NCBI GenBank assembly: GCA_049325495.1
Contig: JBMOKV010000477.1
Span: forward strand, 1 to 61,761
Direction of reading: 5' to 3'
DNA from: Candidatus Rifleibacteriota bacterium
Lineage (GTDB): Bacteria > Muiribacteriota > Ozemobacteria > Ozemobacterales > Ozemobacteraceae
Length of the DNA stretch: 61,761 bases
Under the pieces are notes generated by a model. It ran no database searches, had not been told where the DNA came from, and was given only the letters and a program-made list of their open reading frames with translations. The number at the start of each line of letters is the position of its first letter. The stretch's first letter is position 1. Positions 16,809 to 60,255 of the stretch are shown here, in pieces. The position numbers and the translations under genes are program-made.

Positions 16809-19724
16809 TCAATCGGTTGAACAGGTTATTATAACCAGAGTTTTATCATCAGAATTTTGAATAAGTCCGGCTTTCTGGTAAAACTGGTTGACGTTCTGGA
16901 AATATTTCAGGGGGGAAATGTTGAAACTGCTCAGTAGTGCCGATTTGAACTTTTCAAGATCCATATTTTCAAGTTCGTAATAGCCGTCTGTATAGAGAAC
17001 CAGTGCCTGGCCAGGTTCCAGCTGATAAGAGGCGGTTTTTTCATAGTCTTTTTTTGAAGTTCCCAGCGGAGAATTTATCATCGCCAGCATTTCAACCCGG
17101 TTATTATTTTTGTCGATCAGAATGGGAAAGCAGTGCCCGGCATTGAGATAGGTAAATTGCCCGTTTTTATCAAAGAGCAGATATTGAAAAGACATGAATT
17201 TTTTCTGGTTTCGGTTTTGTGTTTGTTTCAAAAGTTTATTTAAACGGTTTGCAAGTGCTAAAGGCTGGTTGTAAAGATCAAAAAGCTTTATAACCGCCGA
17301 TTTTACGAAGGCCATTATCAGAGAAGCTGCAACTCCATGACCCGAAACGTCGCCGAGCATAAAACCGGTCTTTCCATCAGAAGAGTTAAGTATGTCAAAA
17401 TAATCGCCACCAAGGTCATCGAGCGATTCAGTTTTTCCATAAAAATTTATTTTTCCGTGAACCTGCTCTTCATTGAGCTGAGGTAAAAGCTTTTCTTGAA
17501 CTATTCCCGCAACCTGCAATTCTTCCATGTCGTTGAGGGTTCGGTTGAAAATCTGGGCCAGATGACCGAATTCGTTCTTTCCCAGGTCTGGCAGGCGATA
17601 ACTGAAATTTCTTGAGCCCAGGGCGTTAACTCCCTTTTTGAGTACGGTTATTGGCTCGGTTACAGTTCCTGAAATCAAAAGGCTCAGGGCAAAAATTGCC
17701 AGAGCGGTTAAAATACCTGCAAGCAGGATGTTTTTTATCAGTTTCTTCGATTCATCATCGATAACTTCGAGTGGAAAAATGGCCACCATCGAAATATTGT
17801 CATTATGATTGCCCTGATATGGCATGAAAAAGTGTTTTTTGCCCTGATAATCAATAACGGAAGAAATGCCATTATTTGATGCGTTAATTTTATCGAGGAA
17901 AACTCTGATCTGGTAATCATTAATCGTTCCTTCCGGAAAATATGCGTCGTAAGATGTTCTAATAAAAATTCGGAAGCCATATTTGTTGCGGTTTAGGTTA
18001 TTGATCGTTTTTTCGGCAAAATGTCTCGCAAGGTCACCGCTGCTCAAAATCGCCAACAGGTTGTAATCGTAAGCTGAAGAATTTAAACGGAGTATTTTAA
18101 TGAAACTTTTGAAGGGTTGGCTGCCAAAACCAAATCGCCAAAGTGTTCCAAGAGATTCAAAGTAGCTTTGAGAAATGATCATCTGGTTGCTTTGCCCCAT
18201 TGCGTCAAAAACCATTTCCGCTTCCAGGCCCTGTTTATCTGAGGGTGTGCTTCCATTCATAAGGGTCAGAAAAAATTTGAAAATTATATCAAAGGCTCGA
18301 ACTCTATTTATTCTATCAGGCTCAATGGGCCCCTGATCTGATTGAAAAAGATAATTGATGACCTGGTTTCGGGTTAGAATCGCTCTTTCATTGGCTATCA
18401 ACGGGGTTTGGCTACCGATCAGAAAAAAGTTTCTCAGTTCCGGGACCTGTTTGCTTATAAAATCAGAAACTGCCTGTCGGGTAATTCCTTCTTTCTGCAA
18501 TGAATTTTCCAGGGCCGGAATGGTTTTTTCCAGAGTGGCGAGTTGAGCTGATTCCGAAAAAACAACTCCTTCATCGATACTTTGCAGGAAATCCAGGCTG
18601 CTGCGGTTAAGGTCGCCGATTCTGCTTTCTCGAAACTCATTTACGTAATCATGGCCAATAACCAGGTAAAAAAGCATGGGCAGAAAACTGGAAAAAACAA
18701 ACAGTACTATCAGTCTGAGTTGAAGTCGGCCTGGCGCAGGTTTTTTACCGCTCGCAGCAAAATGCTGGGCGAGTAAAGTCGCGATGAAAAACCAGAAAAG
18801 AAGGAAAACTTTTTCATGAATTACCCTGGTTGAACCTGGAATCTTGTGGTGATCGATTAATCCAATCAGTTTTCGAGAATCATCCAGAGGATAAACGCAC
18901 AAAGTCAAATCATTACGGGTTAAAACTCGATTTGTCTTGATTTTGGAAATCCCGGAAAAGGCTTTTAAGCTTGCCGAATGATCTCTTGTTTCTGGCATTA
19001 TTGAAGAGCCTTCAAGAAGAAAAATCGGATTCTTTCTGTTTTTTTCCTGGTTAATCTGGGTAATATGATTTTTAATTGATGAATAGTTTTTCAACTTGTC
19101 AGGATTGAAAAAAACCAGAAGACCAGACGATTCTGCCATTCCGAGCCAAATTTTGTCGGCTTTATCGGAGAATGAAACCCTGGCAAGAGAAGGTGAACTG
19201 TTGTGAGAGCAGATAAATCGGGATTGGGTAAAGAAAATTGGACCGATCATGGTTCGCAGATTGATGATTTCATCTTCAGGATAATCTTCAAAACGAATGT
19301 CGTATTGATCGGTAAACTCGAGAATCATGGTTCTGGCTGCCTTCTCCCAGGCATGCCTGTCAGAGGTCCAGTTGAAGTTGCAATATGTGATTTCAGCTTT
19401 ACTGTTCCAGATCATGATTCGACAATTCAGATCTGTTTTGTTTAAAAAATTTTGAACCGCGATTTCCATTTTCCCGGGATCGAAAACATTGCCATAGTAG
19501 ATGTCCCGTAAATTTGAACTCAGGTAATTTTCAGAGTCGGCGGCGGTAATTTTGATGTTTTCACATTCACTCTGAACACGCTGAACTTCATTTTCAAGAT
19601 TATTTTTAAACAGATATTTGGAATACAGGTTCCATAGATAGCTGAAAACCATGGCTGGAAAAAATAATATCAACAACCAGACAAGGCCATTCTGAAACGT
19701 TTTTCTGCCCGATTCAGTTCTCAT
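16809..19724 (-). CDS. Multi-TM sensor with HAMP and SpoIIE/PP2C phosphatase domain
   Basis: Four hydrophobic segments, HAMP (TEPITVLKKGV...NEFGHLAQIFN), LGGDYFD, GDVSGHG, YTDG, SDDKT. Confidence 0.9.
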   Translation of the reverse strand: MRTESGRKTFQNGLVWLLILFFPAMVFSYLWNLYSKYLFKNNLENEVQRVQSECENIKITAADSENYLSSNLRDIYYGNVFDPGKMEIAVQNFLNKTDLNCRIMIWNSKAEITYCNFNWTSDRHAWEKAARTMILEFTDQYDIRFEDYPEDEIINLRTMIGPIFFTQSRFICSHNSSPSLARVSFSDKADKIWLGMAESSGLLVFFNPDKLKNYSSIKNHITQINQEKNRKNPIFLLEGSSIMPETRDHSASLKAFSGISKIKTNRVLTRNDLTLCVYPLDDSRKLIGLIDHHKIPGSTRVIHEKVFLLFWFFIATLLAQHFAASGKKPAPGRLQLRLIVLFVFSSFLPMLFYLVIGHDYVNEFRESRIGDLNRSSLDFLQSIDEGVVFSESAQLATLEKTIPALENSLQKEGITRQAVSDFISKQVPELRNFFLIGSQTPLIANERAILTRNQVINYLFQSDQGPIEPDRINRVRAFDIIFKFFLTLMNGSTPSDKQGLEAEMVFDAMGQSNQMIISQSYFESLGTLWRFGFGSQPFKSFIKILRLNSSAYDYNLLAILSSGDLARHFAEKTINNLNRNKYGFRIFIRTSYDAYFPEGTINDYQIRVFLDKINASNNGISSVIDYQGKKHFFMPYQGNHNDNISMVAIFPLEVIDDESKKLIKNILLAGILTALAIFALSLLISGTVTEPITVLKKGVNALGSRNFSYRLPDLGKNEFGHLAQIFNRTLNDMEELQVAGIVQEKLLPQLNEEQVHGKINFYGKTESLDDLGGDYFDILNSSDGKTGFMLGDVSGHGVAASLIMAFVKSAVIKLFDLYNQPLALANRLNKLLKQTQNRNQKKFMSFQYLLFDKNGQFTYLNAGHCFPILIDKNNNRVEMLAMINSPLGTSKKDYEKTASYQLEPGQALVLYTDGYYELENMDLEKFKSALLSSFNISPLKYFQNVNQFYQKAGLIQNSDDKTLVIITCSTD

Positions 19725-22581
19725 CTGATTTTCCTTTGAATCTCATGATCAACATGCTCAGATCATCATTTTGAACTGGAGACCAGGCATGATGATATCG
19801 AAAAGCTTCTTCAAGAATTTTTTCCGGATTCTGGTGAGCAAGGCTTTTTATCAATTCAAGAAAACGAGGATATCCAAATGCTTCCATGTTTGAACCAACA
19901 TCTTCGATAAATCCATCAGAGTAGAACAGCAGCATATCGTTATTCCCCAGGCTTAACTCGACTTCTGAATAATCTCTGGCATATTTTGAGCCAAGTGGGA
20001 TTCCTGAGATTTCTATGAATTCAACGTCTCCAGAATTTCGAATCAGAATGGGATAACAATGTCCGGCATTTGCCAGACTGGTTTTTCCTGTTTTCAGGCA
20101 GATGGTAAGGTTAATCAGCGTCATCATGCGTCGCCAGTTTTTTTCACGAAGGAACAGGAATATCTTGTTACATTCAAGCAAAAACCTGGAAGGATTGATC
20201 ATTTCTTCAGGAAGAGTAGTATGAGCTTTGATCATCGCCATTATCAGGGCAGCAGGAATGCCGTGTCCGGCCACATCTCCAAACGCAAGATGAAGAAGGT
20301 TATCGTTGATTTTGTGATAATCATAAAAATCTCCTCCCATTGATGTCATGTAACTGGCTTTTGCAGAGATTTCGAACTGTGGGTCAGTCATAGAAGCAGC
20401 TGGAAGTAAAGCTTCCTGGACTGAAGAACCAAGTGAAAGATCTGCCATATTTTCAATGGCTTTATTGAAGGCTGCTGCAAGTTCTGCGAATTCATCAATA
20501 TCGTCGATGGGAAGTCGATGGCGAAAATTCCTTTTTTGAATTTCCTGCAGACCTGTTTCAATTTTAGTCAATGGTTTGAATAGATTGGTTGAAAATCGTA
20601 TAGTTGCAAAAATGGTAAATGAAATAAAAATCAAAGAAACAATTAAAATTCGTTTTGCCAGATTGTCAATTTCCGAAAAAAGAAGTCTGGTTGGCCACAA
20701 TGCAATGATTACTGAACGATTAAGATTATTTCCGCTCATTGCTGAGGCGACGAACTGTTTTCCATTCAGGTCAATCATATCAGAAAAAGCGAACTTTTCT
20801 TTTCTTGCTCTTTCAAATACATCCTGGAGTTCTTCGGGAACTTCATCGCTGGTGACGAAGTTCTGGTTTGAAACATTGTTGAATGCAAGAATCTTACCAG
20901 GGTCAAATGAAGATTTAAAATTATCCAGTTCTCTGCGAAAGAAAAATCGGTGAAAAGAAAACGGATCCCAGGCAATTGAAAGCATTCCCCAGCAGTTATA
21001 ATCTGCCTGGCTTCCAAGAAAATTCAAATAAACAATTCTTTCGCCGGTACTCAAGGTTCTAAATGAAATTTTTCCGGTGTCTTTGAGAACTTCGGCAGTG
21101 AGGTCATGCTGGGCAAAAAATCCATCAGTGTTCATGTGATTATAAATTACTGCGGGATTTTTGCTGTTGTTCATGCTGTCGAGAATGTTTGAGAAAAGCA
21201 GCATCATGCGCTTGTATGTCTGATTATCTACCTGTTCGCCGCCATAAAAGAAGGTGTCAGATTTGGGCTTAAACAGTCCATACTCCGAGGCGGACAATTT
21301 TTCCAGTCTCTGTTCGAGATCATTAATTGCTTCTGGTGGCCATACTTTTAAACCGTGCTTGTCCTGCAGCCTGCTAATGGTCTGATTCAGATTCTCAGCA
21401 AGATTTTTCTGAAAGCTTACGTAGCGATGGTCGAGGTCTTTAATTATGCCAAGATTGGCATTATGCTGCCTGAAAATTAAATTCTGTTTCTGAAAGTTGA
21501 AATACTCATAGCATGAAGAAACCAGGAGTAGAAGGGGAAGTCCGGTGGAAAATGAAACAATGAGAAGAAGTCGCATCTTGATTGAAAGCTGTAAATCAAA
21601 GCGAAACCAGGCGCAATAAAAAATAAAGGCAGAAATTAGCAGAAATTTGAAAATTTTACCGGCAAAAATTAAAATATCTTTTGAAACTTGAGCGGTTTTC
21701 TTTTCAACTGCCGCAAAAAGAGCTATTTCGGGGGTAATTTGCCGGAAAATCCAATAATGTGCCGAGCTTTCCTGAAATGCAGCGGTGTTGCTTCTGAAGG
21801 CCTGAAGTTGCATGTCAAATTCAGAACGATCAGTCAGCCATGGCGCATTTAAAAATTCTTTGCTCGACAGGTAAAAGCCTGCTTTATATCGTTTTGATCG
21901 GGAAAAATCTCGACAAAGCTTTTTCAGGGCAATGTTGCGATGCTTGAAAATCCGGGGTATCAGACAGGCAACTGAAAAATCCTGGCCGAACTGGTACCAG
22001 ACGAAACCTTTATCTTCATCTGCACTGACAAAAAGTGCAGAACCATTTTGCCCCTGTAGAAAAGGCCGGTCCATGACATTTTCCACCAGGAAAACTCCAA
22101 AATATTTGCGAAGCAGATGAATGTTTTCGTTGAGAAAAGTGAGTCGGGAAACTTTGTTGAGCGGGTCATTTTTTAACGTGTCGTTTATCAGCCTGAGGGC
22201 CTGCCACATTTTGCCCAGAAGATATGAGAATTTCTTTTCGTCGCAGAGCTCAGGAATAAGCTTTCCAGTTTCATTCCAGGTGATTATTTTAATCTTGTTC
22301 TGGAATGCGGATTTAGCTCTACGATAAAAAAGGCCTGGATCTTTTTCGCAGCGTTTAAAAAGGTTCTGTAGAAAAACATGAAAAAATTTCCGGTCGTCAT
22401 GCATCGGTTCAATTTTGTTAAGGATCGATGCCAGTTCGCTTTCGATTTTTTTTCCCGCTTCTTTTTCTTTAACCGTCAGGTGAATCTGTATGGCGGAAAA
22501 AACCGCGAACAGGGGAAGAATCGCCAGAAGAGTTATCTGGCTGATTCTTTTCAATAACCAGGTTGCTTTGTTTGCCTGCAA
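19714..22581 (-). CDS. Multi-TM sensor with HAMP and SpoIIE/PP2C phosphatase domain
   Basis: Four hydrophobic segments, HAMP (FKPLTKIETG...DEFAELAAAFN), MGGDFYD, GDVAGHG, YSDG, NDDLS; overlaps the downstream paralog by 11 nt. Confidence 0.9.
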   Translation of the reverse strand: MQANKATWLLKRISQITLLAILPLFAVFSAIQIHLTVKEKEAGKKIESELASILNKIEPMHDDRKFFHVFLQNLFKRCEKDPGLFYRRAKSAFQNKIKIITWNETGKLIPELCDEKKFSYLLGKMWQALRLINDTLKNDPLNKVSRLTFLNENIHLLRKYFGVFLVENVMDRPFLQGQNGSALFVSADEDKGFVWYQFGQDFSVACLIPRIFKHRNIALKKLCRDFSRSKRYKAGFYLSSKEFLNAPWLTDRSEFDMQLQAFRSNTAAFQESSAHYWIFRQITPEIALFAAVEKKTAQVSKDILIFAGKIFKFLLISAFIFYCAWFRFDLQLSIKMRLLLIVSFSTGLPLLLLVSSCYEYFNFQKQNLIFRQHNANLGIIKDLDHRYVSFQKNLAENLNQTISRLQDKHGLKVWPPEAINDLEQRLEKLSASEYGLFKPKSDTFFYGGEQVDNQTYKRMMLLFSNILDSMNNSKNPAVIYNHMNTDGFFAQHDLTAEVLKDTGKISFRTLSTGERIVYLNFLGSQADYNCWGMLSIAWDPFSFHRFFFRRELDNFKSSFDPGKILAFNNVSNQNFVTSDEVPEELQDVFERARKEKFAFSDMIDLNGKQFVASAMSGNNLNRSVIIALWPTRLLFSEIDNLAKRILIVSLIFISFTIFATIRFSTNLFKPLTKIETGLQEIQKRNFRHRLPIDDIDEFAELAAAFNKAIENMADLSLGSSVQEALLPAASMTDPQFEISAKASYMTSMGGDFYDYHKINDNLLHLAFGDVAGHGIPAALIMAMIKAHTTLPEEMINPSRFLLECNKIFLFLREKNWRRMMTLINLTICLKTGKTSLANAGHCYPILIRNSGDVEFIEISGIPLGSKYARDYSEVELSLGNNDMLLFYSDGFIEDVGSNMEAFGYPRFLELIKSLAHQNPEKILEEAFRYHHAWSPVQNDDLSMLIMRFKGKSDEN

Positions 22582-43087: not shown

Positions 43088-43390
43088 GTTTCATTTTTCA
43101 AGCAGTCAAAGCCGACCAGCTCGTCTTTAACCCTCGTGAGTATGAATCATTTTGCCACACGATAAAACTTATGGAAAATAATTCAGGTTTGCTGGTACGT
43201 ACCGCAGTTTCTCCAATGGTGTGGATGTTTAAGTTTGTTTGCCGTCGCTGATTAACGGCTGAATCTTTTTCGTAAACAAAACATCACTTTGGTTCGAAAG
43301 GGGTTATGGATTTGTTTGCCTCCTTATTTTTCAGTCCGGGATAGCTCCCGGATTCTTTTTTTTAGCCCAAAAAAATGTATAATTGTCTGC

Positions 43391-46354
43391 ATGTTCGAAG
43401 CAAAAGCGAAATCGAAAAACGACAGGGTTATGGCCCTGATCTTGGTTTTTAGCCTGTTTTTGCTTCTTTTTCTGCCGCTTTCAATTTTTAAAAACAAAAT
43501 CTTTCTTCTTTATCAGAAAGAAAACGAAGCCCTTCTTGTTGATCTGAAAGATCGCCTGCTTCAGGAAATTGCCGACTTTCAAGCCGATTTGAAACCTGAA
43601 ATTTTCTTTCAGAAATCATTAAAGGCATTTGAAGACAGATTTTTTGCAGGTAGTTTACCTGTTTTTTCAGACATACTGAGTGCTGCCAGTTCAAGCCAGG
43701 CCATTGACCCGGAAAAATTCTGTCGTGAACTTTGTCGCGAATACATTGATAAATACCGCATTGAGCCAAGGTTTGTCGTTGCTATCGACCCGAAATTGAC
43801 CAGACCTGCCGGTGTTTTTTCGCAAACCTTTGAGCGTGGCGGTTTTTCTGATCAAAAACTGATTGAGATTCTTCTTAATGCTGGTCTGATCAACTCTGTG
43901 CGAAAAGTTATCGGCGATTACCCTGATTTAAAGGAAAAACCTAGAGAAGTTAATAGCAAACTTTATTCCGAATTAGAAAAAGTTGTTTCGTCTTTTGACA
44001 ACCGCTTCTTAATGCCTGATATTCCCGGTAGATTCCTTTCTGATTTTTTAAATTTCCAAAGTTTTTATCTTTATTATCAGAAGCTCAAAAAAAATGGCAT
44101 TGAACTTGGTCATTTTACGATCGGCATCGGTGAATGTGATATCAGCGCTGAATCATTGAGAGATTTTGCACTCAATCAGGAAAAAGGCGGCATAACCAGG
44201 GAAATTAAGCGAATTCGTTCAGGCAAAAATATCAGGAGCGGATTCTTTTTCAATGGCGGGAAAATTTTTTACCTCGACCGGATTTCAGCTGAACATGCGA
44301 ATCTTATCAGAAACTCCTTTTTGACCGGTAATTGTGCTGATTACGCCAGTTTCGACGATGTTCTGATCGTGGGATCATCCATTCCTGAACATCTGCGCCT
44401 GAAAAATCTTGATAAACTGACTGGTATTACCCAGTTTTTTCTCATTCTTCTTTTTTTTGCCCTGGCGGTTCATACGGCACTGTTGGGTTTCAGGTTAAGC
44501 CTGCCACTTCGCCGCAAATTTATTCTCATCGTTGGAACCGTGCTTCTTCCTTTCGCATTTCTACTGAGCCTTTTTTCATGGCTCACCGCCGAAAAACTGA
44601 GTGCAGAAAGATTGTCGCAGGCATTTAACCGTCTGGCCCGTTATCTGCATGAAAACGAGCTTCTGGTGCACGAAGTTGGCGAAAGGCAGTCATTGAACAC
44701 GCTGATGCTCAAAAATGCGCTGGTTGAATTGAAAGAAAAAGACTTCATTAACCTTGAGGCCTGGAAGAAGGTAACCGATGTGAAAGTGGTAAATCTGCAT
44801 CTTGGCCTTCTTTATCATTTTTTGGGCGATTACATGCTGTATCCGACCTGGCTGGTTTATCCCTTTTCCAAGCTTCCGCTGGTTATGCATAATAATTGCG
44901 TAAAATTTCTGAATAATCTGAGAGAGCTCGATACGGGAATCGGGAAAATTCGCAACCAGCTCGAGCGGGTTTCCATGTCAGATGCTTTAATCGGGGATTA
45001 TGTGGCCATTGTCGATTACAGCGCGATTATGGCGGAAGAAATCAAGAATATGCCTGATTTTTCAAAGGCATCGCCCCTTTTGCGCATGAATTTTTTTCTC
45101 CTGCCTGACCCGGAAGGCAGTCGGCCGGTTAAACCTGCAGCAATTGCCATGCTTACCAACCAGAGAAACATGAACCACCATGGTCTGATTTTATCGATGC
45201 CCGGGTATCCTGATAAATTTCATCAACGCAGCGACGGTGACTGTCAGATTTTTATCAATATCGCATCACGAAACACCACTGATGTTGAAGACCTTTATTT
45301 TGAAGGAAAGGGAAATGACTGGCCGGATTTCAAACAGATTTTCAATAACGCTATCGAAAGCGGCGCGAGCGGCAATCGTACGATCAGAAAGAAAGATCGA
45401 ACGGAAATTGTAATGTGGATCTATTATGAGGATCTTTCTTTCATTCTTGCAGGTGTTTGTTATCTGCCTCACAGCTTTTATCAGTCCGGTTTTTTCTATT
45501 TTGGCCCGGCTATAGTACTCATTCTGGCGCTGGTTTCGCTTTTACTTGTCTCTGAAATCATGGGTTCTGTATTTCTTTCGCCCCTCGATACAATTGAAAA
45601 GGCTGCCTGGCAGATTTCTTCAACTACCGACCTTGATAAAAGAGTAGATATTCAGACCGGTGACGAGTATTCAGTGATGGGCATAGCATTCAACCAGATG
45701 GCTTCAGGTCTGTTGCAGAAGCAGCGTTTAAGCCGCTTCGTTTCCGGCCGTCTGCTGACAAATCTTGATAAAGGCGTGCAGTCATCAGCCGAACGGGTAA
45801 ATGTGGCCGTTCTGGTGTCTGACATTCGCAATTTTACCGGCATTACTGAAAAGCATGCTGCTGCAGATGTGGTTTTGATGCTGAATCTTTACTTCACCGA
45901 AATGGAAAAAGCAATCGTGGCAGCTGGTGGAATAATTGAACGTTTTGTCGGGGATGCGATAGTCGCTATTTTTTATCCGGATCAATGCCAGCACAATCCA
46001 TGCGTTCACGCCTGTCATGCCGGAATTAAAATGAGGCAGAACCTGGGGAAATTTAACGAACTACGCCGAAAAGCAGGGCTTTTTGAAGTGGAAAACGGCA
46101 TTGGGATTTCCTCTGGTGAAGTGATATCTGGCAGTTTGGGAATGACAGGCGGAAGAATGGAGTTTTCAGTTGTGGGAAAGGCGGTTGGGCGTGCCAGCGA
46201 ACTTGAGGGACTTACAAGGCACACAGGAAACTTGAAAATAGTATTCGATGAGTCGGTAAGCAGTAATGTTGGGAATATTTACTCTTTTCGCTCACTGAAT
46301 GGTTTCTCTGATGCATTTGAACTAATGGAAGCAAGAGATGAACAGGCAGAATAA
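43391..46354 (+). CDS. Multi-TM HAMP class III nucleotide cyclase, C1-like half (metal Asps only)
   Basis: SDIRNFT and FVGD Asps are present; K->R, T->S, N->G, R->E, and the KGK motif is absent. The start may be upstream (ORF track 43289). Confidence 0.9.
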   Translation: MFEAKAKSKNDRVMALILVFSLFLLLFLPLSIFKNKIFLLYQKENEALLVDLKDRLLQEIADFQADLKPEIFFQKSLKAFEDRFFAGSLPVFSDILSAASSSQAIDPEKFCRELCREYIDKYRIEPRFVVAIDPKLTRPAGVFSQTFERGGFSDQKLIEILLNAGLINSVRKVIGDYPDLKEKPREVNSKLYSELEKVVSSFDNRFLMPDIPGRFLSDFLNFQSFYLYYQKLKKNGIELGHFTIGIGECDISAESLRDFALNQEKGGITREIKRIRSGKNIRSGFFFNGGKIFYLDRISAEHANLIRNSFLTGNCADYASFDDVLIVGSSIPEHLRLKNLDKLTGITQFFLILLFFALAVHTALLGFRLSLPLRRKFILIVGTVLLPFAFLLSLFSWLTAEKLSAERLSQAFNRLARYLHENELLVHEVGERQSLNTLMLKNALVELKEKDFINLEAWKKVTDVKVVNLHLGLLYHFLGDYMLYPTWLVYPFSKLPLVMHNNCVKFLNNLRELDTGIGKIRNQLERVSMSDALIGDYVAIVDYSAIMAEEIKNMPDFSKASPLLRMNFFLLPDPEGSRPVKPAAIAMLTNQRNMNHHGLILSMPGYPDKFHQRSDGDCQIFINIASRNTTDVEDLYFEGKGNDWPDFKQIFNNAIESGASGNRTIRKKDRTEIVMWIYYEDLSFILAGVCYLPHSFYQSGFFYFGPAIVLILALVSLLLVSEIMGSVFLSPLDTIEKAAWQISSTTDLDKRVDIQTGDEYSVMGIAFNQMASGLLQKQRLSRFVSGRLLTNLDKGVQSSAERVNVAVLVSDIRNFTGITEKHAAADVVLMLNLYFTEMEKAIVAAGGIIERFVGDAIVAIFYPDQCQHNPCVHACHAGIKMRQNLGKFNELRRKAGLFEVENGIGISSGEVISGSLGMTGGRMEFSVVGKAVGRASELEGLTRHTGNLKIVFDESVSSNVGNIYSFRSLNGFSDAFELMEARDEQAE

Positions 46355-49226
46355 AATCAGCAATAGAATCAGCCCTTTGCACGCTCTGGCGATCTGGCTG
46401 TTTCTTCTTGTTCTGCCTCTTTTGCTTCTGAACCATGGCATAATCGAATATTCCGGCTTTTTAAGGCAAAGGCTGATTCTGTTGCGCCAGTCATTTCTGA
46501 ACGATGAGCTCTATGCTTTTATCGATGATCTGCAGCCTCAGAATTTTGTGCAGAGCCGTTTCGACAATGCTGATGCAAATTATCTGCAGAAAGCGGCTGA
46601 TGCTGATGAACTGTGTGGTATGCTCCAACAAAAGACCGGTATTGAAATTGCCGCTGTCTTTTTCCGTACGGGCAGCAAAGAAGCAATTAAAACTGCTTTT
46701 AGTAAGAATTTGAAGCAGGTCTTTGTGGCGCCGCCCCAGTATTTTTTAAAAAAAACATTTGAAGTGTTGGCATTTGAAAACGTTGAGCCTGGCACAAATC
46801 AAGACAAAGAGAGAAAGTCTGCCGCATCAATTTTTCGCTCGATTTTCGGAAACATCAGTGAAATTAAGCTCAAAAGCGGCATCGTCGTTAAAACGATTTC
46901 TTCGAAGACCGGTGACACGGGCCCGGTATATTTCTATTACTTCAGAGAGCAGGATTCAGAAAGGGCTTTCATTGCACTGATCCGGGAAGATGCCCTGAAA
47001 CCCCAGAGAATTATCAATGCCGCTCTGCAGAAAAAAGGAAGAAAGACTGAAAGGCGCATTGTCAGGTCAAAAATCGGGTTAGAGTTTCCCGACCAGGTTA
47101 AAGCCAAAGGCATCAGCACATTTCTGGAAACGGAAGATGGAATTGAGGTAAGAACTGTTCTACCTATTCGCAACATCATTCATCTGGTTCAACGTGGAAC
47201 CATTGTTCCGGTCAACGTTGACCGATTTGTTTCAAATCTGCCGTTGATCTCGGTTTTTTTGCCAAATTCCGCGCTTATGCCCAAAATCTGGCAATATCAT
47301 GGCTTGATTCGCTTTCTCAGTCTGCTCGCCCTTCTTGTCGGTTCTATTTTTCTTCTGAGATTTTGCCTTTTTGGTTTTACCTATCAATTTTCAATTACTT
47401 CCAGAATTTTTACCGGGTTGTCTGTAACCGGTTTTTTTCCGGTGGTCTTTTTCGTTTTTGCTTATAGTTCATTTGCTGAATTTGAGAGGGTAAATCTGAT
47501 TCAACAGGGGCGGCAGATGCTGGCGCAAAGAATGTCAATGCTGCAGAAAAAAGTAAATTCAGGAATCAATGAATTGGAGTTGTTCAATGTTCGCCTGACC
47601 ACCGAGCTTGAACAGATGCATTCTGCTGAGAAAAAGATTCAAAGGCTTGAAGAAGTTGTTGATAAGGTTCCAGAGCGATCATTTTTCGTTATTCCGATTG
47701 AAGGAAAGGGTGAAAAAATTGGTGGAAAGGAAAAGGCGAAAGATATGCAGCTCAACAGATTTGAAAGCGACGCCCTGAACCTCTTTGCAATGCAGATGTT
47801 TGACATGTTGAAAAATTCACCCTTTTTTGAACAGGATCGAAGCACTCTTTCAAGGTTTTTTAACGATGTTATTTCAAATAGAGGCAGCTTAAGCGTCGTT
47901 TTGAAGGCCTTTGGAAAACTGATTATCATCGAGAAACTTACAAGAAAATTCTGGTTTTCATGCATGATGATTCTGCAGCAGAAAAATCAGAGATTTCTGC
48001 CATCACACCTTCTTTTTCCGGCATTATCCGTTGAGAGAGCCATGAAACAGCAGTTTGCTGAAGCGCGAAAAGATGTGGCTCTCCACCATTCCGCCGCCGG
48101 GTTTTCCATAGACCTTGCGCTTGCTTTCCGGGGTGCAGAAGATATAGCCATTGAACCTGAAAATGCTTCAAAAAGAATCGATGTTAAGGCAATTGCAGGT
48201 AATTTGCGAATCGCTGCTCAGGTTAAAAGGGAAATGGTATGGGAAACGGTAGATGGAATTGAAATGGTTCGTTATGACGAGACTCTTCCATTGATCTGCT
48301 ACGGTAGAATTCGTATTCACCAGGAAGATGGACTGCTGACCATGGAAGCCATCCTTAAAATGATTCTATATCTGATTCTTCTAATTGTTGTGGTTGCGCA
48401 GGTTGTAGACAGGTTTTTCGTGAATCCGGTAAAAAAGTTTGCAGATGGAATGCTTGAAGTTTCAACCGGAAATTTAAAGTATAAATTTGAAAATGAAACC
48501 GGCGATGAGTTTGATCGGTTGTCCAGGTCTCTCAACTCAATGTTGCAGGGTCTTATCGAGAAAGAAACCCTGGCCGTTTATGTTTCCGATGATGTCCGAA
48601 ATGATGTCGAGAAAGATTATGAGGGCGGATTTGCTCCCGGCGGAGAAATGATTAAGGCCGCTGTTTTATTTTGTGAACCACTCGAATTCAGCGATTTCGC
48701 CGAAGCCTCTGACCCGTTGATGGTTGTGAATCGTTTGAATTTTTTTGTCGGCAAGGTTTCTCAGATATGTAGTCAGCATGGCGGCGTAATAGACAAAGTG
48801 GTTGAGCATAACCTGATGCTGGTTTTCAGGCAAAAGAAAGGTCTTGAAAACCATGTTTTGCGTGCTGCTTCGGCGGCAAGGCAGATTTCATTACAGGTCA
48901 ACCGGCAGAATGAAGAATTTCCGTTTGTTTGTAGAATAGGTCTTGCCTGTGGTGAAATGATTTCAGGAAAAATTGGCTCGACCATCGGCAAACTTGATTT
49001 TACTGTAATTGGTGACCGGGTTAATCTTGCTGCCAGGCTGAAAGCACTTGCTCACAAGGCCACCAGAACCGGGATTCTTATTTCTGCCGAAATCAGATCG
49101 GAGCTGGGAAACTTTATTGAAGCTGAGAAGGTTGATACGGTTGAAATCAAAGGCAAATCCGGCAAATATGATGTTTACGAGCTCCTTGAGGTCAAACCTT
49201 TGTTTGAAGATGCTAAACGCTCGTAA
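46338..49226 (+). CDS. Multi-TM HAMP class III adenylate cyclase, C2-like half (K/T/N/R/K only)
   Basis: FCEPLEF and VVEH replace the metal Asps; IDK, DFTVIGD, VNLAAR and IKGK are intact; overlaps the upstream cyclase by 17 nt. Confidence 0.9.
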   Translation: MNRQNKISNRISPLHALAIWLFLLVLPLLLLNHGIIEYSGFLRQRLILLRQSFLNDELYAFIDDLQPQNFVQSRFDNADANYLQKAADADELCGMLQQKTGIEIAAVFFRTGSKEAIKTAFSKNLKQVFVAPPQYFLKKTFEVLAFENVEPGTNQDKERKSAASIFRSIFGNISEIKLKSGIVVKTISSKTGDTGPVYFYYFREQDSERAFIALIREDALKPQRIINAALQKKGRKTERRIVRSKIGLEFPDQVKAKGISTFLETEDGIEVRTVLPIRNIIHLVQRGTIVPVNVDRFVSNLPLISVFLPNSALMPKIWQYHGLIRFLSLLALLVGSIFLLRFCLFGFTYQFSITSRIFTGLSVTGFFPVVFFVFAYSSFAEFERVNLIQQGRQMLAQRMSMLQKKVNSGINELELFNVRLTTELEQMHSAEKKIQRLEEVVDKVPERSFFVIPIEGKGEKIGGKEKAKDMQLNRFESDALNLFAMQMFDMLKNSPFFEQDRSTLSRFFNDVISNRGSLSVVLKAFGKLIIIEKLTRKFWFSCMMILQQKNQRFLPSHLLFPALSVERAMKQQFAEARKDVALHHSAAGFSIDLALAFRGAEDIAIEPENASKRIDVKAIAGNLRIAAQVKREMVWETVDGIEMVRYDETLPLICYGRIRIHQEDGLLTMEAILKMILYLILLIVVVAQVVDRFFVNPVKKFADGMLEVSTGNLKYKFENETGDEFDRLSRSLNSMLQGLIEKETLAVYVSDDVRNDVEKDYEGGFAPGGEMIKAAVLFCEPLEFSDFAEASDPLMVVNRLNFFVGKVSQICSQHGGVIDKVVEHNLMLVFRQKKGLENHVLRAASAARQISLQVNRQNEEFPFVCRIGLACGEMISGKIGSTIGKLDFTVIGDRVNLAARLKALAHKATRTGILISAEIRSELGNFIEAEKVDTVEIKGKSGKYDVYELLEVKPLFEDAKRS

Positions 49227-49282
49227 TTCTGCTATTCTTGAAAAGATGTTTTGTATCAGCTGATTTTTCCGGGAGGGTGGTT

Positions 49283-49993
49283 TTGAATAAAAAAACCTGT
49301 TGTGCATGTGGTTGTCTGATCATGGCCCTTGGCATCGTTGCCATCGTTGCCGGTGGATATTTTGGGGTTTCTTTTCTGCATTCGGCCGGCAAAGATTTTG
49401 CTGCCCTGACATTTGAAAAAGGAATGGAATCTGTTACAGAGAAAGCTTTCAGCGAAGAAGATCGCCAAGAAATCCTGGATGGAGCAAAACTGGTAGCCGA
49501 AGGAATTAAAAGTGGCGAAATAGGCCTGATTTCCATGTTTTCCGAAGGTACTCAGCAACTTGAAACTGGTATCTACAATAAGGTTATTCTGCTGGCCTTC
49601 AAAAATCATTATATGCTTAAGGCCGAAGATGGCGCTGAAGCCACTTTCTCGGTAGAAGGTGCCCGTTCGGTTGACCGACTTCTTTTTGGACTGAGTGAAA
49701 AACGAATTTCGGTCGACCAGATTGCTTCGGTAACCCTTAAGCTGACTGAGCATTTTCAGGATAAAATGCCCGACAAAGATGGAAAATCTAATGTTAAATT
49801 CAGCAGCAGAAGGGTGAATACAAAACTTTCCAAAGAAGATGTGGTTGAATGTCTTAAAATGATCAATGAAGTCTGCGATTTGAACAAGATTGAAAATCCG
49901 TCTGAAGAATTCAAACCGGAAAACGTGATTAAAAATGAACTGTTGCAGGTTTTCGACAAACTAAAAAAATCAGGGGAGTCTCAGAAAAAATGA
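49283..49993 (+). CDS. Hypothetical membrane-anchored protein with Cys-rich N-terminus
   Basis: GGAGGG RBS, TTG start at 49283, KKTCCACGC then a TM and a helical domain; the ORF track starts at 49238. Confidence 0.65.
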   Translation: MNKKTCCACGCLIMALGIVAIVAGGYFGVSFLHSAGKDFAALTFEKGMESVTEKAFSEEDRQEILDGAKLVAEGIKSGEIGLISMFSEGTQQLETGIYNKVILLAFKNHYMLKAEDGAEATFSVEGARSVDRLLFGLSEKRISVDQIASVTLKLTEHFQDKMPDKDGKSNVKFSSRRVNTKLSKEDVVECLKMINEVCDLNKIENPSEEFKPENVIKNELLQVFDKLKKSGESQKK

Positions 49994-50727
49994 CTTCGGC
50001 ATGGAAAACATTCTTCGACACTATCGCGCCTGAATACGACGGCGAAATTTTTACCCGCAACACTCTTGCTGAAGTTGATTTTCTTATTGAAGAACTTGGG
50101 CTGAAGGCCGGAGACAGCATTCTTGATATCGGCTGTGGAACAGGTCGCCATAGTGTTGAACTTGCCAAAAGAGGGTTAAAGGTTACCGGAATCGACCAGT
50201 CAAGCGGAATGCTGGCACAGGCAAGAAAAAAAGCAGAAAATGCAGGAGTTGAGCTTGAATTGATCGAAATTCCAGCTCAGGATTTCAAACCCACCCGAAA
50301 GTATTCGGCGGTTATTTCTCTTTGCGAAGGGGCTTTGTGTCTTTTTGACGAGGAAGACGACATCTGGGGCCGGGATATGGCTATTTTTGCCAATATTGCC
50401 GAAGCTCTCGAACCGGGAAGCCCGTTTCTGGTTACGGTGCTGAGCGCGTTTAAATCGATCAGACAGTTTTCCGACGAAGATGTGGCTGCGGGAAAATTCG
50501 ATCTTTTTACTCTGACCGCCCGTGAGCCTGTTGAAGTGAAGCGAAACGGCATCGATGCTTCGATTATTGGAATCGAGCGTCATTATACCCCGCCCGAGCT
50601 GGTAAGAATGGTTAACCGGGTTGGTCTGAAAATTGACCGCTTTTATGGCGGTACGGCTGGTGACTGGCATCGTGGGCCGATCAAACTCGATGAATTCGAG
50701 CTTATGGCTATCGGGCACCGTAAGTAG
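49990..50727 (+). CDS. Class I SAM-dependent methyltransferase
   Basis: ILDIGCGTGRH, VTGIDQS, AVISLCEGA, ALEPGSPF. Confidence 0.92.
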   Translation: MTSAWKTFFDTIAPEYDGEIFTRNTLAEVDFLIEELGLKAGDSILDIGCGTGRHSVELAKRGLKVTGIDQSSGMLAQARKKAENAGVELELIEIPAQDFKPTRKYSAVISLCEGALCLFDEEDDIWGRDMAIFANIAEALEPGSPFLVTVLSAFKSIRQFSDEDVAAGKFDLFTLTAREPVEVKRNGIDASIIGIERHYTPPELVRMVNRVGLKIDRFYGGTAGDWHRGPIKLDEFELMAIGHRK

Positions 50728-58587: not shown

Positions 58588-60255
58588 ATGAAATTGTTTG
58601 TAAAAAACGGTGTTTCGCTCAGAATAACTCTTTTCACGGCTTTCCTTGGAACGGTTCTTTTTACAACATTTCTCAATGCGGGCATAAGCTCTTTACATGT
58701 TAAAAACCTTATTCTTGAGTCTGTCAGAGAAAAATTGCAGGTTGCCGTAGGCATTGGTGCCCATCAGATCGATGGTGACATTCATGCCCGAATCATGCGT
58801 GATTCAGATAAAAGATCTGTTGAATTCAAAACTATTTTTGACCAGTTAAGCAGTATTTTAAAGGTCAACCCGGATATCAAAAATGTTTATACGATCCGCC
58901 AGACCGGGGAAAATGAAGCGGTCTTTGTAGTCGACGCTGACCCGAAAGAAATAGAACGGGCTAATGTCGGGCATCGGGTTATTTTGATTACACCATCGAT
59001 GGCAAAAGCTTTTGCCCAGAAAAACCTGGTGGTTGTCGAAAGAAAATTTTACAAGGATGAATGGGGAACTTTCGTTTCAGGTTTTGCTCCATTTTATCGA
59101 AGCGATGGCACTTTTGAAGGGTTGTTGGGCATGGATGTCATGGCTGAAACCGTAAGATCTCATCAAATCAACAATATACTGGCGATTTTGACCACCTGCG
59201 TTGTCGTAACCTTCGTTGCCGTTTTTCTGAGTCTGATCATTTCCCGAAAAATTTCCGACCCCATAACCAGAGTAACCAGTGACATGGCTGAAATTCAGAA
59301 ATTCAACCTTGAATCAGCCCTTGAATCAACTTCGAAAATCCATGAAATCAGAAGAATGACCGACGCTCTCGATAATATGAAGAAGGGCCTGCGCTCATTC
59401 AAAAAATATGTGCCTACTGAACTGGTTTCTGACCTGATAAAGTTAAAGAAAGAAGCTTCTCTCGAAGCTGAAAATCGTCAAATATCCATTTTATTTTCCG
59501 ATATTCAGGGCTTCACTTCAATTTCTGAAAAAATTGCTCCTGATGATCTGGCCGAATCTATCGGCTATTATTTCGGTGAAATGACACAGGTGATTATGGA
59601 TACTGGCGGCATAGTCGATAAATACATAGGTGATGCCATCATGGCGCTATGGGGAACTCCCCACGATCTTGAAGATCATCAGCTTGCAGCCTGCTGTGCA
59701 GCCTTGCGTTGCCGGGATAAAGAGAAGGAAATCAATGAGCGGCTTCAACAAAAGGGGTTGCCTACCTTTTTCACCAGAATTGGAATAAATTCCGGCCACG
59801 CAATTGTCGGCAATTTCGGATTCGATAAGCGTATGACCTACACGGCGATTGGCGACAGCGTCAATCTTGCATCCCGCCTTGAGGGAATCAATAAATTTTA
59901 TCAGACAGCGATTCTCATAAGTCAGAATACTTACAACGCGGTTAAAAATCACGTCCTTGCCCGACTTGTAGATGTGGTTATCGTAAAAGGAAAAACTGAA
60001 GGCGTAAAAATCTATGAATTGATTTCTTTGCTTGACAATGCTGATGAAAAAGAAATAAAGCGGGTCAGTCGGCATAACAAGGCCATGAGTCTTTATTTGA
60101 ATAAAAACTGGCGGTCGGCACTTCGGCTTTTTAAAGCTTTGAAAAAACAAAGGGATGATTTCGCGGTTGGTGTAATGATTGAACGCTGCCAGAATTTTCT
60201 TGAAAATCCCCCCGGCGATGATTTTGTCGGAGTTGTTGCCTTAAGAAACAAATGA
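58588..60255 (+). CDS. Membrane adenylate cyclase (Cache-like sensor, HAMP, complete class III domain)
   Basis: FSDIQGFT, DKYIGD, RIGINSG, YTAIGDSVNLASR, VKGK; all catalytic residues present. Confidence 0.93.
   Translation: MKLFVKNGVSLRITLFTAFLGTVLFTTFLNAGISSLHVKNLILESVREKLQVAVGIGAHQIDGDIHARIMRDSDKRSVEFKTIFDQLSSILKVNPDIKNVYTIRQTGENEAVFVVDADPKEIERANVGHRVILITPSMAKAFAQKNLVVVERKFYKDEWGTFVSGFAPFYRSDGTFEGLLGMDVMAETVRSHQINNILAILTTCVVVTFVAVFLSLIISRKISDPITRVTSDMAEIQKFNLESALESTSKIHEIRRMTDALDNMKKGLRSFKKYVPTELVSDLIKLKKEASLEAENRQISILFSDIQGFTSISEKIAPDDLAESIGYYFGEMTQVIMDTGGIVDKYIGDAIMALWGTPHDLEDHQLAACCAALRCRDKEKEINERLQQKGLPTFFTRIGINSGHAIVGNFGFDKRMTYTAIGDSVNLASRLEGINKFYQTAILISQNTYNAVKNHVLARLVDVVIVKGKTEGVKIYELISLLDNADEKEIKRVSRHNKAMSLYLNKNWRSALRLFKALKKQRDDFAVGVMIERCQNFLENPPGDDFVGVVALRNK

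Follow-up and report, generated by a model that had tools for sequence, protein, structure and literature searches.

The vertebrate membrane adenylyl cyclases AC1-9, which are pseudo-heterodimers organised as TM1-C1-TM2-C2 with two membrane domains (TM) and two catalytic domains (structures 1AZS, 1CJK, 8SL3/8SL4 and 9U3R), use a composite active site to which C1 contributes the aspartates and C2 the rest. The soluble guanylyl cyclase alpha/beta and the chytrid RGC/NeoR cyclases are heterodimers with one active and one degenerate site, and their homodimers are inactive or poor enzymes (PMC3591389, PMC8815786). The bacterial enzymes Rv1625c/Cya, CyaB (3R5G), Cya2 (2W01), CyaC (1WC0) and bPAC/OaPAC are symmetric homodimers with two sites, and a 2022 review describes bacterial class III cyclases as homodimerising and places the asymmetric C1/C2 design, with its duplication and fusion, in an early eukaryote (PMC9552081). 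A search of the searchable full-text literature yielded no naturally occurring heterodimeric or tandem class III cyclase from bacteria. Here we describe two overlapping receptor cyclase genes, A and B, on contig JBMOKV010000477.1 of a Candidatus Rifleibacteriota bacterium from the family Ozemobacteraceae (assembly GCA_049325495.1); the whole stretch analysed, 61,761 nucleotides, is called the window. We consider it likely that the two proteins are the subunits of one receptor adenylyl cyclase, an obligate heterodimer in which a single composite active site is accompanied by a dead pseudo-site.

The catalytic residues of A and B are divided in the same way as in AC1-9. A and B resemble soluble guanylyl cyclase and RGC/NeoR in being two separate homologous polypeptides. 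In contrast to these eukaryotic enzymes, which use GTP and carry H-NOX/PAS or rhodopsin domains, A and B are bacterial HAMP receptors with the ATP-type Lys/Thr combination. With the bacterial homodimers listed above they share the fold and the catalytic chemistry, and these are also their nearest relatives in sequence, but A and B are each without half a site. Engineered complementary mutants of Rv1625c, attributed to Guo et al. in 2001, reportedly restore one site and would be a laboratory analogue of this natural pair. The analysis consisted of computations on the residue pattern, its conservation, gene adjacency, co-diversification, the fusion of paralogues and purifying selection; the physical pairing of A and B of the window, catalysis, the product and the sensor ligands are what we infer from them.

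Gene A (43391-46354), the C1-like half, was defined from its open reading frame (ORF) and translation, Pfam matches to HAMP and Guanylate_cyc, hydropathy and a database protein (P0004, 974 aa). Gene B (46338-49226), the C2-like half, has the same layout with 962 aa and was defined from its ORF, Pfam matches, hydropathy and an AlphaFold2 (AF2) model. Positions are on the forward strand unless stated otherwise, and residues of A are counted from the first TTG (43289) of its long ORF (43289-46354). Both proteins exceed the cut-off of the Pfam profile Guanylate_cyc (PF00211; 21.9 bits), A with an E-value of 3e-11 (43.7 bits) and B with 4e-13 (49.8 bits). According to the profile and to alignments with structures of the Protein Data Bank (PDB), the cyclase homology domain (CHD) of A (45797-46213) covers profile positions 7-139 of 183, and its C-terminal strands bearing the Lys of KGK are absent or diverged; the CHD of B (48657-49178) is full length (positions 9-179 of 183). 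Equivalent positions were assigned by phmmer alignment to the solved cyclases Cya2 (2w01), CyaB (3r5g) and OaPAC and were re-checked on an alignment of the genome's complete set of cyclase domains made with jackhmmer, and the codons were inspected individually.

A keeps both metal-binding aspartates, D845 (GAC, 45821-45823) and D889 (GAT, 45953), and phmmer aligns its segments VLVSD-IRNFT and RFVGD with the motifs that hold the metal-binding Asp in Cya2 and CyaB. Within the motif R-F-V-G-D (45941-45955), R885 (45941) stands for the adenine-binding Lys. In the motif S-VVGKAV-G-RAS-E (46166-46201), S960 occupies the Asp/Thr specificity position, and Gly (G967, 46187) and Glu (E971, 46199) are found instead of Asn and Arg. 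The segment VGKAVGRASELE of A was aligned by phmmer over VGAQVNLTYRIE and IGREVNLASRLE of solved cyclases, and the exchanges Lys to Arg, Asn to Gly and Arg to Glu in A follow from these alignments. The Lys of KGK is likewise missing from A. In B, FCEPLEFS and KVVEH were aligned by phmmer over FSDIVSFS and KFIGD of OaPAC, and both metal-binding aspartates are therefore lost: E780 (48675-48677) replaces the first, and in the motif K-VV-E-H (48795-48809) E823-H824 (48804-48809) replace Gly-Asp, next to a conserved K820. B retains DFTVIGDRVNLAARL and IKGK. Its motif T-VIGDRV-N-LAA-R (49002-49037) contains Thr889, Asn896 and Arg900, of which T889 lies seven residues before Asn896 at the position of the specificity Asp/Thr, and Lys938 (49149-49151) of IKGK is the gamma-phosphate Lys. 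Neither chain has the complete set of a self-sufficient homodimer, A being without Lys, Asn, Arg and the terminal Lys and B without both Asp. The distribution is of the C1/C2 type, with only the metal Asp in A and only the substrate and transition-state residues in B. Most of these residues had been named in a preceding sequence-only reading of the locus, and every codon named there proved to be in frame and to encode the residue assigned to it.

The closest PDB matches of A and B are Cya2, CyaB, bPAC/OaPAC and CyaC, with E-values down to 3e-21, and the mammalian enzymes AC5 and AC8 matched A with E-values of only 1e-5 to 1e-7 and were absent from the matches of B. Linder and Schultz (2003) reportedly characterised class IIIb by a Lys whose specificity partner is Thr instead of Asp. 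The combination of Lys and Thr is present in B (K820/T889) and in all 23 B-type domains of the genome, in agreement with class IIIb. Class IIIa, the clade of Rv1625c and the vertebrate membrane enzymes, has Lys and Asp as its specificity pair and does not fit A and B.

The source genome (4.9 Mb, 677 contigs) contains 69 matches to PF00211, and seven catalytic positions were typed on the jackhmmer alignment of all cyclase domains. Both Asp are kept in all 22 A-type domains, with Asn kept in two, Arg in two and the last Lys in one. The first Asp is kept in none of the 23 B-type domains and the second in ten; K, T, N and R are present in all 23 and the last Lys in 21. A further 23 domains are canonical and have both Asp as well as K, N and R without exception, T (16), D (6) or S (1) at the specificity position and the last Lys in 19 cases. 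One canonical enzyme lies in the window itself (58588-60255); it is a single-gene class III cyclase in which, as had been proposed, Pfam and the domain alignment reveal every catalytic residue (DKD-R-TNRK), and it served as an internal control. A 772-aa protein on contig C114 (2111-4426, reverse strand) has a cyclase domain without both halves of the site (E-K-G-K-S-G-K) and is, judged by these residues, probably a true pseudo-enzyme.

The A-type and B-type proteins have about 950-1030 aa, and their genes are direct neighbours with a shared orientation. Adjacent same-strand neighbours were of opposite type in all 20 cases: in 14 an A-type gene is followed by a B-type gene, in five, among them junctions where tandem pairs meet, the B-type gene comes first, and in one an A-type gene precedes a B-type gene cut by the contig end. 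The genome contains at least 17 A/B pairs, one of which is the pair of the window, as a member of a radiation that extends through the family. Chance or random decay as the origin of the pattern was ruled out by the strict reciprocity in the 22 A-type and 23 B-type domains and by the alternation of 20 of 20 neighbours.

Outside this genome a word-based protein search identified a handful of full-length relatives of A with 38-40% identity, and a scan of species-representative genomes added the loci L006, L007 and L008, the last one from Candidatus Ozemobacter sp. On the contigs found by the protein search the A-like gene overlaps the B-like gene by 8 nt. L001 and L002 share with the window the downstream genes for an unknown protein and an S-adenosylmethionine (SAM)-dependent methyltransferase, with genes for a TPR protein and an unknown protein on the opposite strand, and are therefore positional relatives. 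In four positional-relative pairs (L001/L002/L006, L003, L007 and L008) adjacency and split pattern are kept: A has both Asp and has lost Asn and Arg, and B has Glu at the first Asp, Lys, Asn or His at the second Asp, and then T, N, R and K. A B-type gene with the same split also lies directly downstream of all 12 further A-like loci, which come from ten family genomes. The sequence-only reading had suggested a search of related genomes for this arrangement, and both adjacency and reciprocal pattern are indeed retained there. The residues of the pseudo-site are conserved among the closest relatives (Glu at the first Asp position of B, Glu/Asp at the Arg position of A) and vary freely among paralogues. 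The six best A-like matches from other families of the phylum (five genomes) were all canonical single genes; as far as this small sample goes, the split appears limited to one family.

The ratio of nonsynonymous to synonymous substitution rates (dN/dS), which had also been proposed as a check, was calculated for one related pair, L001 versus L007 (74% identity). It was far below 1 for both catalytic domains, with 0.04 for the cyclase domain of A and 0.125 for that of B, and 0.10-0.13 for the sensors and HAMP, although dS is near saturation and all these values are rough. They indicate that both apparently crippled cyclase domains are clearly constrained. The possibility that the genes are pseudogenes was ruled out by the intact frames of about 1000 aa across genera together with dN/dS values of 0.04-0.13. 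Four A-like paralogues in related genomes (G043:C17:371516-372157, G025:C6:8589-9227, G058:C20:94445-95077 and G056:C59:7941-8579) contain one in-frame stop (TGA/TAA) and are possibly decaying copies within the radiation. Both chains are without the residues for homodimeric catalysis, and a receptor or scaffold function of two pseudo-enzymes without cyclic nucleotide output, under relaxed selection after duplication, would explain this. Relaxed selection should, however, lead to random loss, yet more than 50 pairs and fusions (the latter are described below) show strict reciprocity of the loss, and both domains are under purifying selection. We therefore regard this explanation as very improbable.

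In a tree of the 69 domains the A-type and B-type domains fall in one weakly supported group (SH-like approximate likelihood ratio test, 85), which includes one canonical cyclase; most canonical cyclases fall outside. One label change is needed on this tree for the A-type and two for the B-type. The two canonical cyclases nearest to the group, on contigs C267 and C482, share the four-helix layout and are single genes without an adjoining scaffold partner. The branching of the A subclades is mirrored in the B subclades, also for a trio whose gene order is reversed (C403, C433 and C599). In this subfamily the B-type gene lies upstream and the A-type gene downstream, and the B-types have lost only the first Asp (to Asn or His) and kept the second, which is a milder degeneration. 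A comparison of the A-A with the B-B distances of 17 cognate pairs yielded a correlation of r = 0.548 that was reached by none of 20,000 permutations in a Mantel-type test, and thus the pairs duplicated and diverged as units.

The complementary logic shared by 22 A-type and 23 B-type domains would also allow promiscuous pairing across the roughly 20 pairs, that is, a combinatorial network in which adjacency ensures co-expression only. Orphan A-like genes without a neighbouring partner fit this idea. At L004 (1104-4085) and L005 (1094-4075) a 993-aa A-like cyclase, which keeps D, K and D and has Ser for Asn and Ala for Arg, is followed by a LytB gene, and no B-type partner is present on the contig; to judge by its residues this cyclase should have no activity by itself, and any partner would have to be located elsewhere. 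The co-diversification of cognate partners (r = 0.55), the gene overlap and the fusion in one subfamily point instead to dedicated partners, and we consider a promiscuous network improbable. It would in any case still need heterodimers and refines the heterodimer explanation more than it opposes it.

The fusions just mentioned occur in the source genome and in other genomes of the family. In the source genome an ORF on contig C278 (5131-11193, reverse strand) encodes a protein of 2021 aa with eight membrane helices, an A-type domain at residues 830-986 and a B-type domain at residues 1848-2019. Three more long fused frames run into contig ends; together with the first they belong to one A subclade. 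Using the A-type domain of the C278 fusion as query, a search of 51 family genomes revealed about 55 open frames with lengths of 1976-2224 aa, distributed over 32 of these genomes and six of 15 genera. Twenty fusions, from 20 genomes, were typed. In all of them CHD1 keeps D, K and D and has lost Asn and Arg, and CHD2 has lost the first Asp and kept Asn, Arg and Lys; the specificity residue is Thr in 19 and Ser in one. The order of the domains, C1-like then C2-like, is also identical in 20 of 20 and equals that of mammalian C1 and C2. Assembly or frameshift artefacts were ruled out, since the four frames of this genome form one clade and the frames are intact in 20 of 20 cases from 20 other genomes.

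For the C278 fusion an AF2 model of residues 822-2021 was built on a fusion-only alignment (A3, 23 fused rows). Both cyclase domains were folded, with a mean predicted local distance difference test score (pLDDT) of 78 and a predicted template modelling score of 0.57. In a Foldseek search with this model the top match by E-value was full-length human AC5 (8sl4_A), and AC9 (9u3r) was matched too. These matches extend over about 1220-1250 columns with target-normalised template modelling scores (TM-scores) of 0.30 and 0.38, and a single cyclase domain could reach at most about 0.20-0.22. The model thus suggests a C1/C2-like mutual arrangement of the two domains, short of proof.

The findings are compatible with the following mechanism. 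A and B overlap by 17 nt (46338-46354), as noted earlier and confirmed by the ORFs and a codon check, and this stretch contains the stop codon TAA of A (46352-46354) and the ATG of B; the overlap suggests that both genes are co-transcribed and translationally coupled. Each protein would cross the membrane with four helices, expose two dCache-like modules and signal via HAMP to a class III (IIIb-like) cyclase domain. The cyclase domains of A and B would pair head to tail and form one complete interface pocket, in which A provides the two-metal site (D845, D889) and B provides K820 for adenine, Thr889 at the specificity position, Asn896 and Arg900 for ribose and transition state, and Lys938 for phosphate. 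The pseudo-symmetric pocket, made up of E780 and E823-H824 of B and R885, S960, G967 and E971 of A, would be dead. Homodimers should be inactive, A:A without Asn, Arg and both Lys and B:B without the metal Asp, and judged by these residues cAMP is probably made only when A and B are combined. The most likely product is cAMP because of the Lys/Thr pair and because the closest solved relatives are class IIIb adenylyl cyclases; 13 cyclic nucleotide-binding domains are encoded in the genome and could receive the signal. The heterodimer would gather four dCache-like modules on one catalytic site, and an AND-gate logic and an allosteric use of the dead pocket are speculation. The comparative tests support the obligate heterodimer with one ATP-type site and one degenerate pocket that had been predicted from the window.

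Several points weigh against this mechanism or reduce the force of the evidence, besides the near-saturated dS mentioned above. The match of the fused model to AC5 and AC9 bears only indirectly on the geometry of the composite site, and the fusions belong to a paralogous subfamily different from that of the window pair, so that they provide evidence by analogy. At the position of the phosphate-contacting Arg of some cyclases A has a Gly. The sequence-only reading had listed the missing Arg before IGI as a caveat; this caveat loses weight, since Gly is found at this position in 22 of 22 A-types and likewise in 8 of the 23 canonical enzymes, and by these counts the Arg is dispensable in this lineage. 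Finally, the Glu and Glu-His replacements in B could bind metal weakly, and residual activity of B:B is conceivable for the window pair.

The last point leads to an explanation in which B is a weakly active homodimer with Glu780 and Glu823/His824 as metal ligands and A has no catalytic role and modulates B by titrating or tuning it. B keeps all substrate and transition-state residues, the replacements of its Asp are potential metal ligands, and the Glu at the first Asp position is kept in the closest relatives (window, L001, L003, L007 and L008). Paralogous B-types, in contrast, carry Gly, Ser, Thr, Ala or Lys at the lost Asp positions, where metal binding is not possible. Moreover, a role as modulator would not require the constraint seen in A, which keeps both Asp in 22 of 22 cases and has a dN/dS of 0.04 in the cyclase domain. 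Because of the Gly, Ser, Thr or Ala of the paralogues, a weak activity of B alone is unlikely as the logic of the whole family, and for the window pair, too, we consider this explanation quite improbable. The obligate heterodimer remains our preferred reading.

The membrane and sensor architecture was analyzed by hydropathy and structure prediction. A and B each contain four membrane helices in the order TM1, about 300 aa, TM2-TM3, about 300 aa, TM4, HAMP and cyclase. The sensor region of A (43433-45550) comprises TM1, a module of about 315 aa, TM2-TM3, a module of about 305 aa and TM4, and was assigned by hydropathy and jackhmmer homology to the sensor of B; the sensor region of B (46374-48407; hydropathy, AF2 and Foldseek) comprises TM1, module 1, TM2-TM3, module 2 and TM4. 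HAMP domains (PF00672) were detected in A at 45572-45712 (E 1.5e-6) and in B at 48411-48554 (E 6.4e-9), and in both proteins TM4 ends just before HAMP, as in a HAMP-linked receptor. BLASTP detected no similarity between the sensor regions of A and B. A jackhmmer search started from the sensor region of B recovered 17 A-type and 15 B-type proteins, and A and B are therefore homologous throughout.

No named sensor domain and no Cache match was found in A or B with Pfam and NCBIfam. An AF2 model of residues 1-720 of B (10-row alignment, mean pLDDT 74) shows each module as a long stalk helix with alpha/beta domains. Foldseek matched this model to the dCache domains of PctA/B/D, TlpA, Mlp24/37 and HK1S-Z with probabilities of 0.9-1.0; these matches are weak, with E-values of only 1e-3 to 1e-2 and TM-scores of 0.35-0.48. 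The predicted fold of the modules may be similar to the double PAS-like fold with a long stalk helix that typifies dCache domains such as those of these chemoreceptor and histidine kinase sensors, except that here two modules, parted by a membrane hairpin, are arranged in tandem in each subunit.

For gene A two start codons have to be considered. Translation from ATG 43391 yields 987 aa, and an alternative start is ATG 43430, where the database protein of 974 aa begins. A strong terminator-like hairpin of 9 pairs followed by T8 (43333-43362) lies inside the TTG-initiated ORF just 5' of ATG 43391. This hairpin sets A apart from the preceding gene and counts against the start at TTG 43289. Because of this hairpin and the start of the database protein, we consider one of the two ATG codons the most likely start of A. 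Downstream of B two co-directional genes (49238-50727) begin after 12 nt, with the same gene order as in relatives. The product of the first has 251 aa, is hydrophobic in an N-terminal segment and gave no Pfam match; the second encodes the SAM-dependent methyltransferase. These genes may belong to the A-B operon and be co-transcribed, since the same order follows the pair in the relative L001.

The scaffold is not restricted to cyclases. On the reverse strand of the window (16809-22581) two overlapping genes encode proteins of about 960 aa with four helices, two modules, HAMP and a SpoIIE/PP2C output domain (Pfam E 1e-31 to 1e-33). Starting from the sensor of B, jackhmmer recovered 50 ORFs of the genome that have the scaffold without a cyclase domain, most of them in adjacent same-strand runs, and on contig C556 at least 11 such ORFs lie in a row. 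Because of these runs, gene pairing seems to go with the scaffold in general and not with the cyclases alone.

The comparison with AC1-9 can now be extended. A dead pseudo-symmetric pocket is predicted here too, and the fused relatives share the order membrane domain, C1-like domain, membrane domain and C2-like domain. In contrast to AC1-9, the halves described here are encoded by two genes, and each half has four helices instead of six, two dCache-like modules and HAMP. Determinants for G-protein and forskolin binding are absent. The catalytic domains are nearest to bacterial class IIIb (E 1e-21 to 1e-15), and the mammalian class IIIa enzymes are distant, with E-values of 1e-5 to 1e-7; thus the asymmetry looks independently evolved, and the bacterial C1/C2-like split is most simply read as convergent with the animal design.

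Three arrangements occur within these bacteria: canonical, presumably homodimeric cyclases encoded by single genes, overlapping pairs with reciprocal loss, and fused TM-C1-TM-C2 proteins of about 2000 aa. As a tentative idea, which we put forward as possible and no further, the family radiation in the Riflebacteria may be built on a scaffold that is a dedicated heterodimer whatever its output; with the cyclase output it would have re-invented the mammalian design independently, with all stages extant and the dead pocket maybe regulatory. If the dead pocket were re-used for regulation, each pair would be a multi-input coincidence detector. Apart from this idea, the C1/C2 design is seen here in bacteria as gene pairs and as fusions, dozens per genome and in a class IIIb background, and offers bacterial proteins as simple models of an asymmetric cyclase core as well as a natural series for the origin of obligate heteromers and of dead allosteric pockets after duplication. 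Many genes annotated as adenylate cyclase in these genomes would be inactive alone, which is a warning for annotation. The pairs would also constitute a large set of receptors in which up to four extracytoplasmic sensor modules act on each catalytic site.

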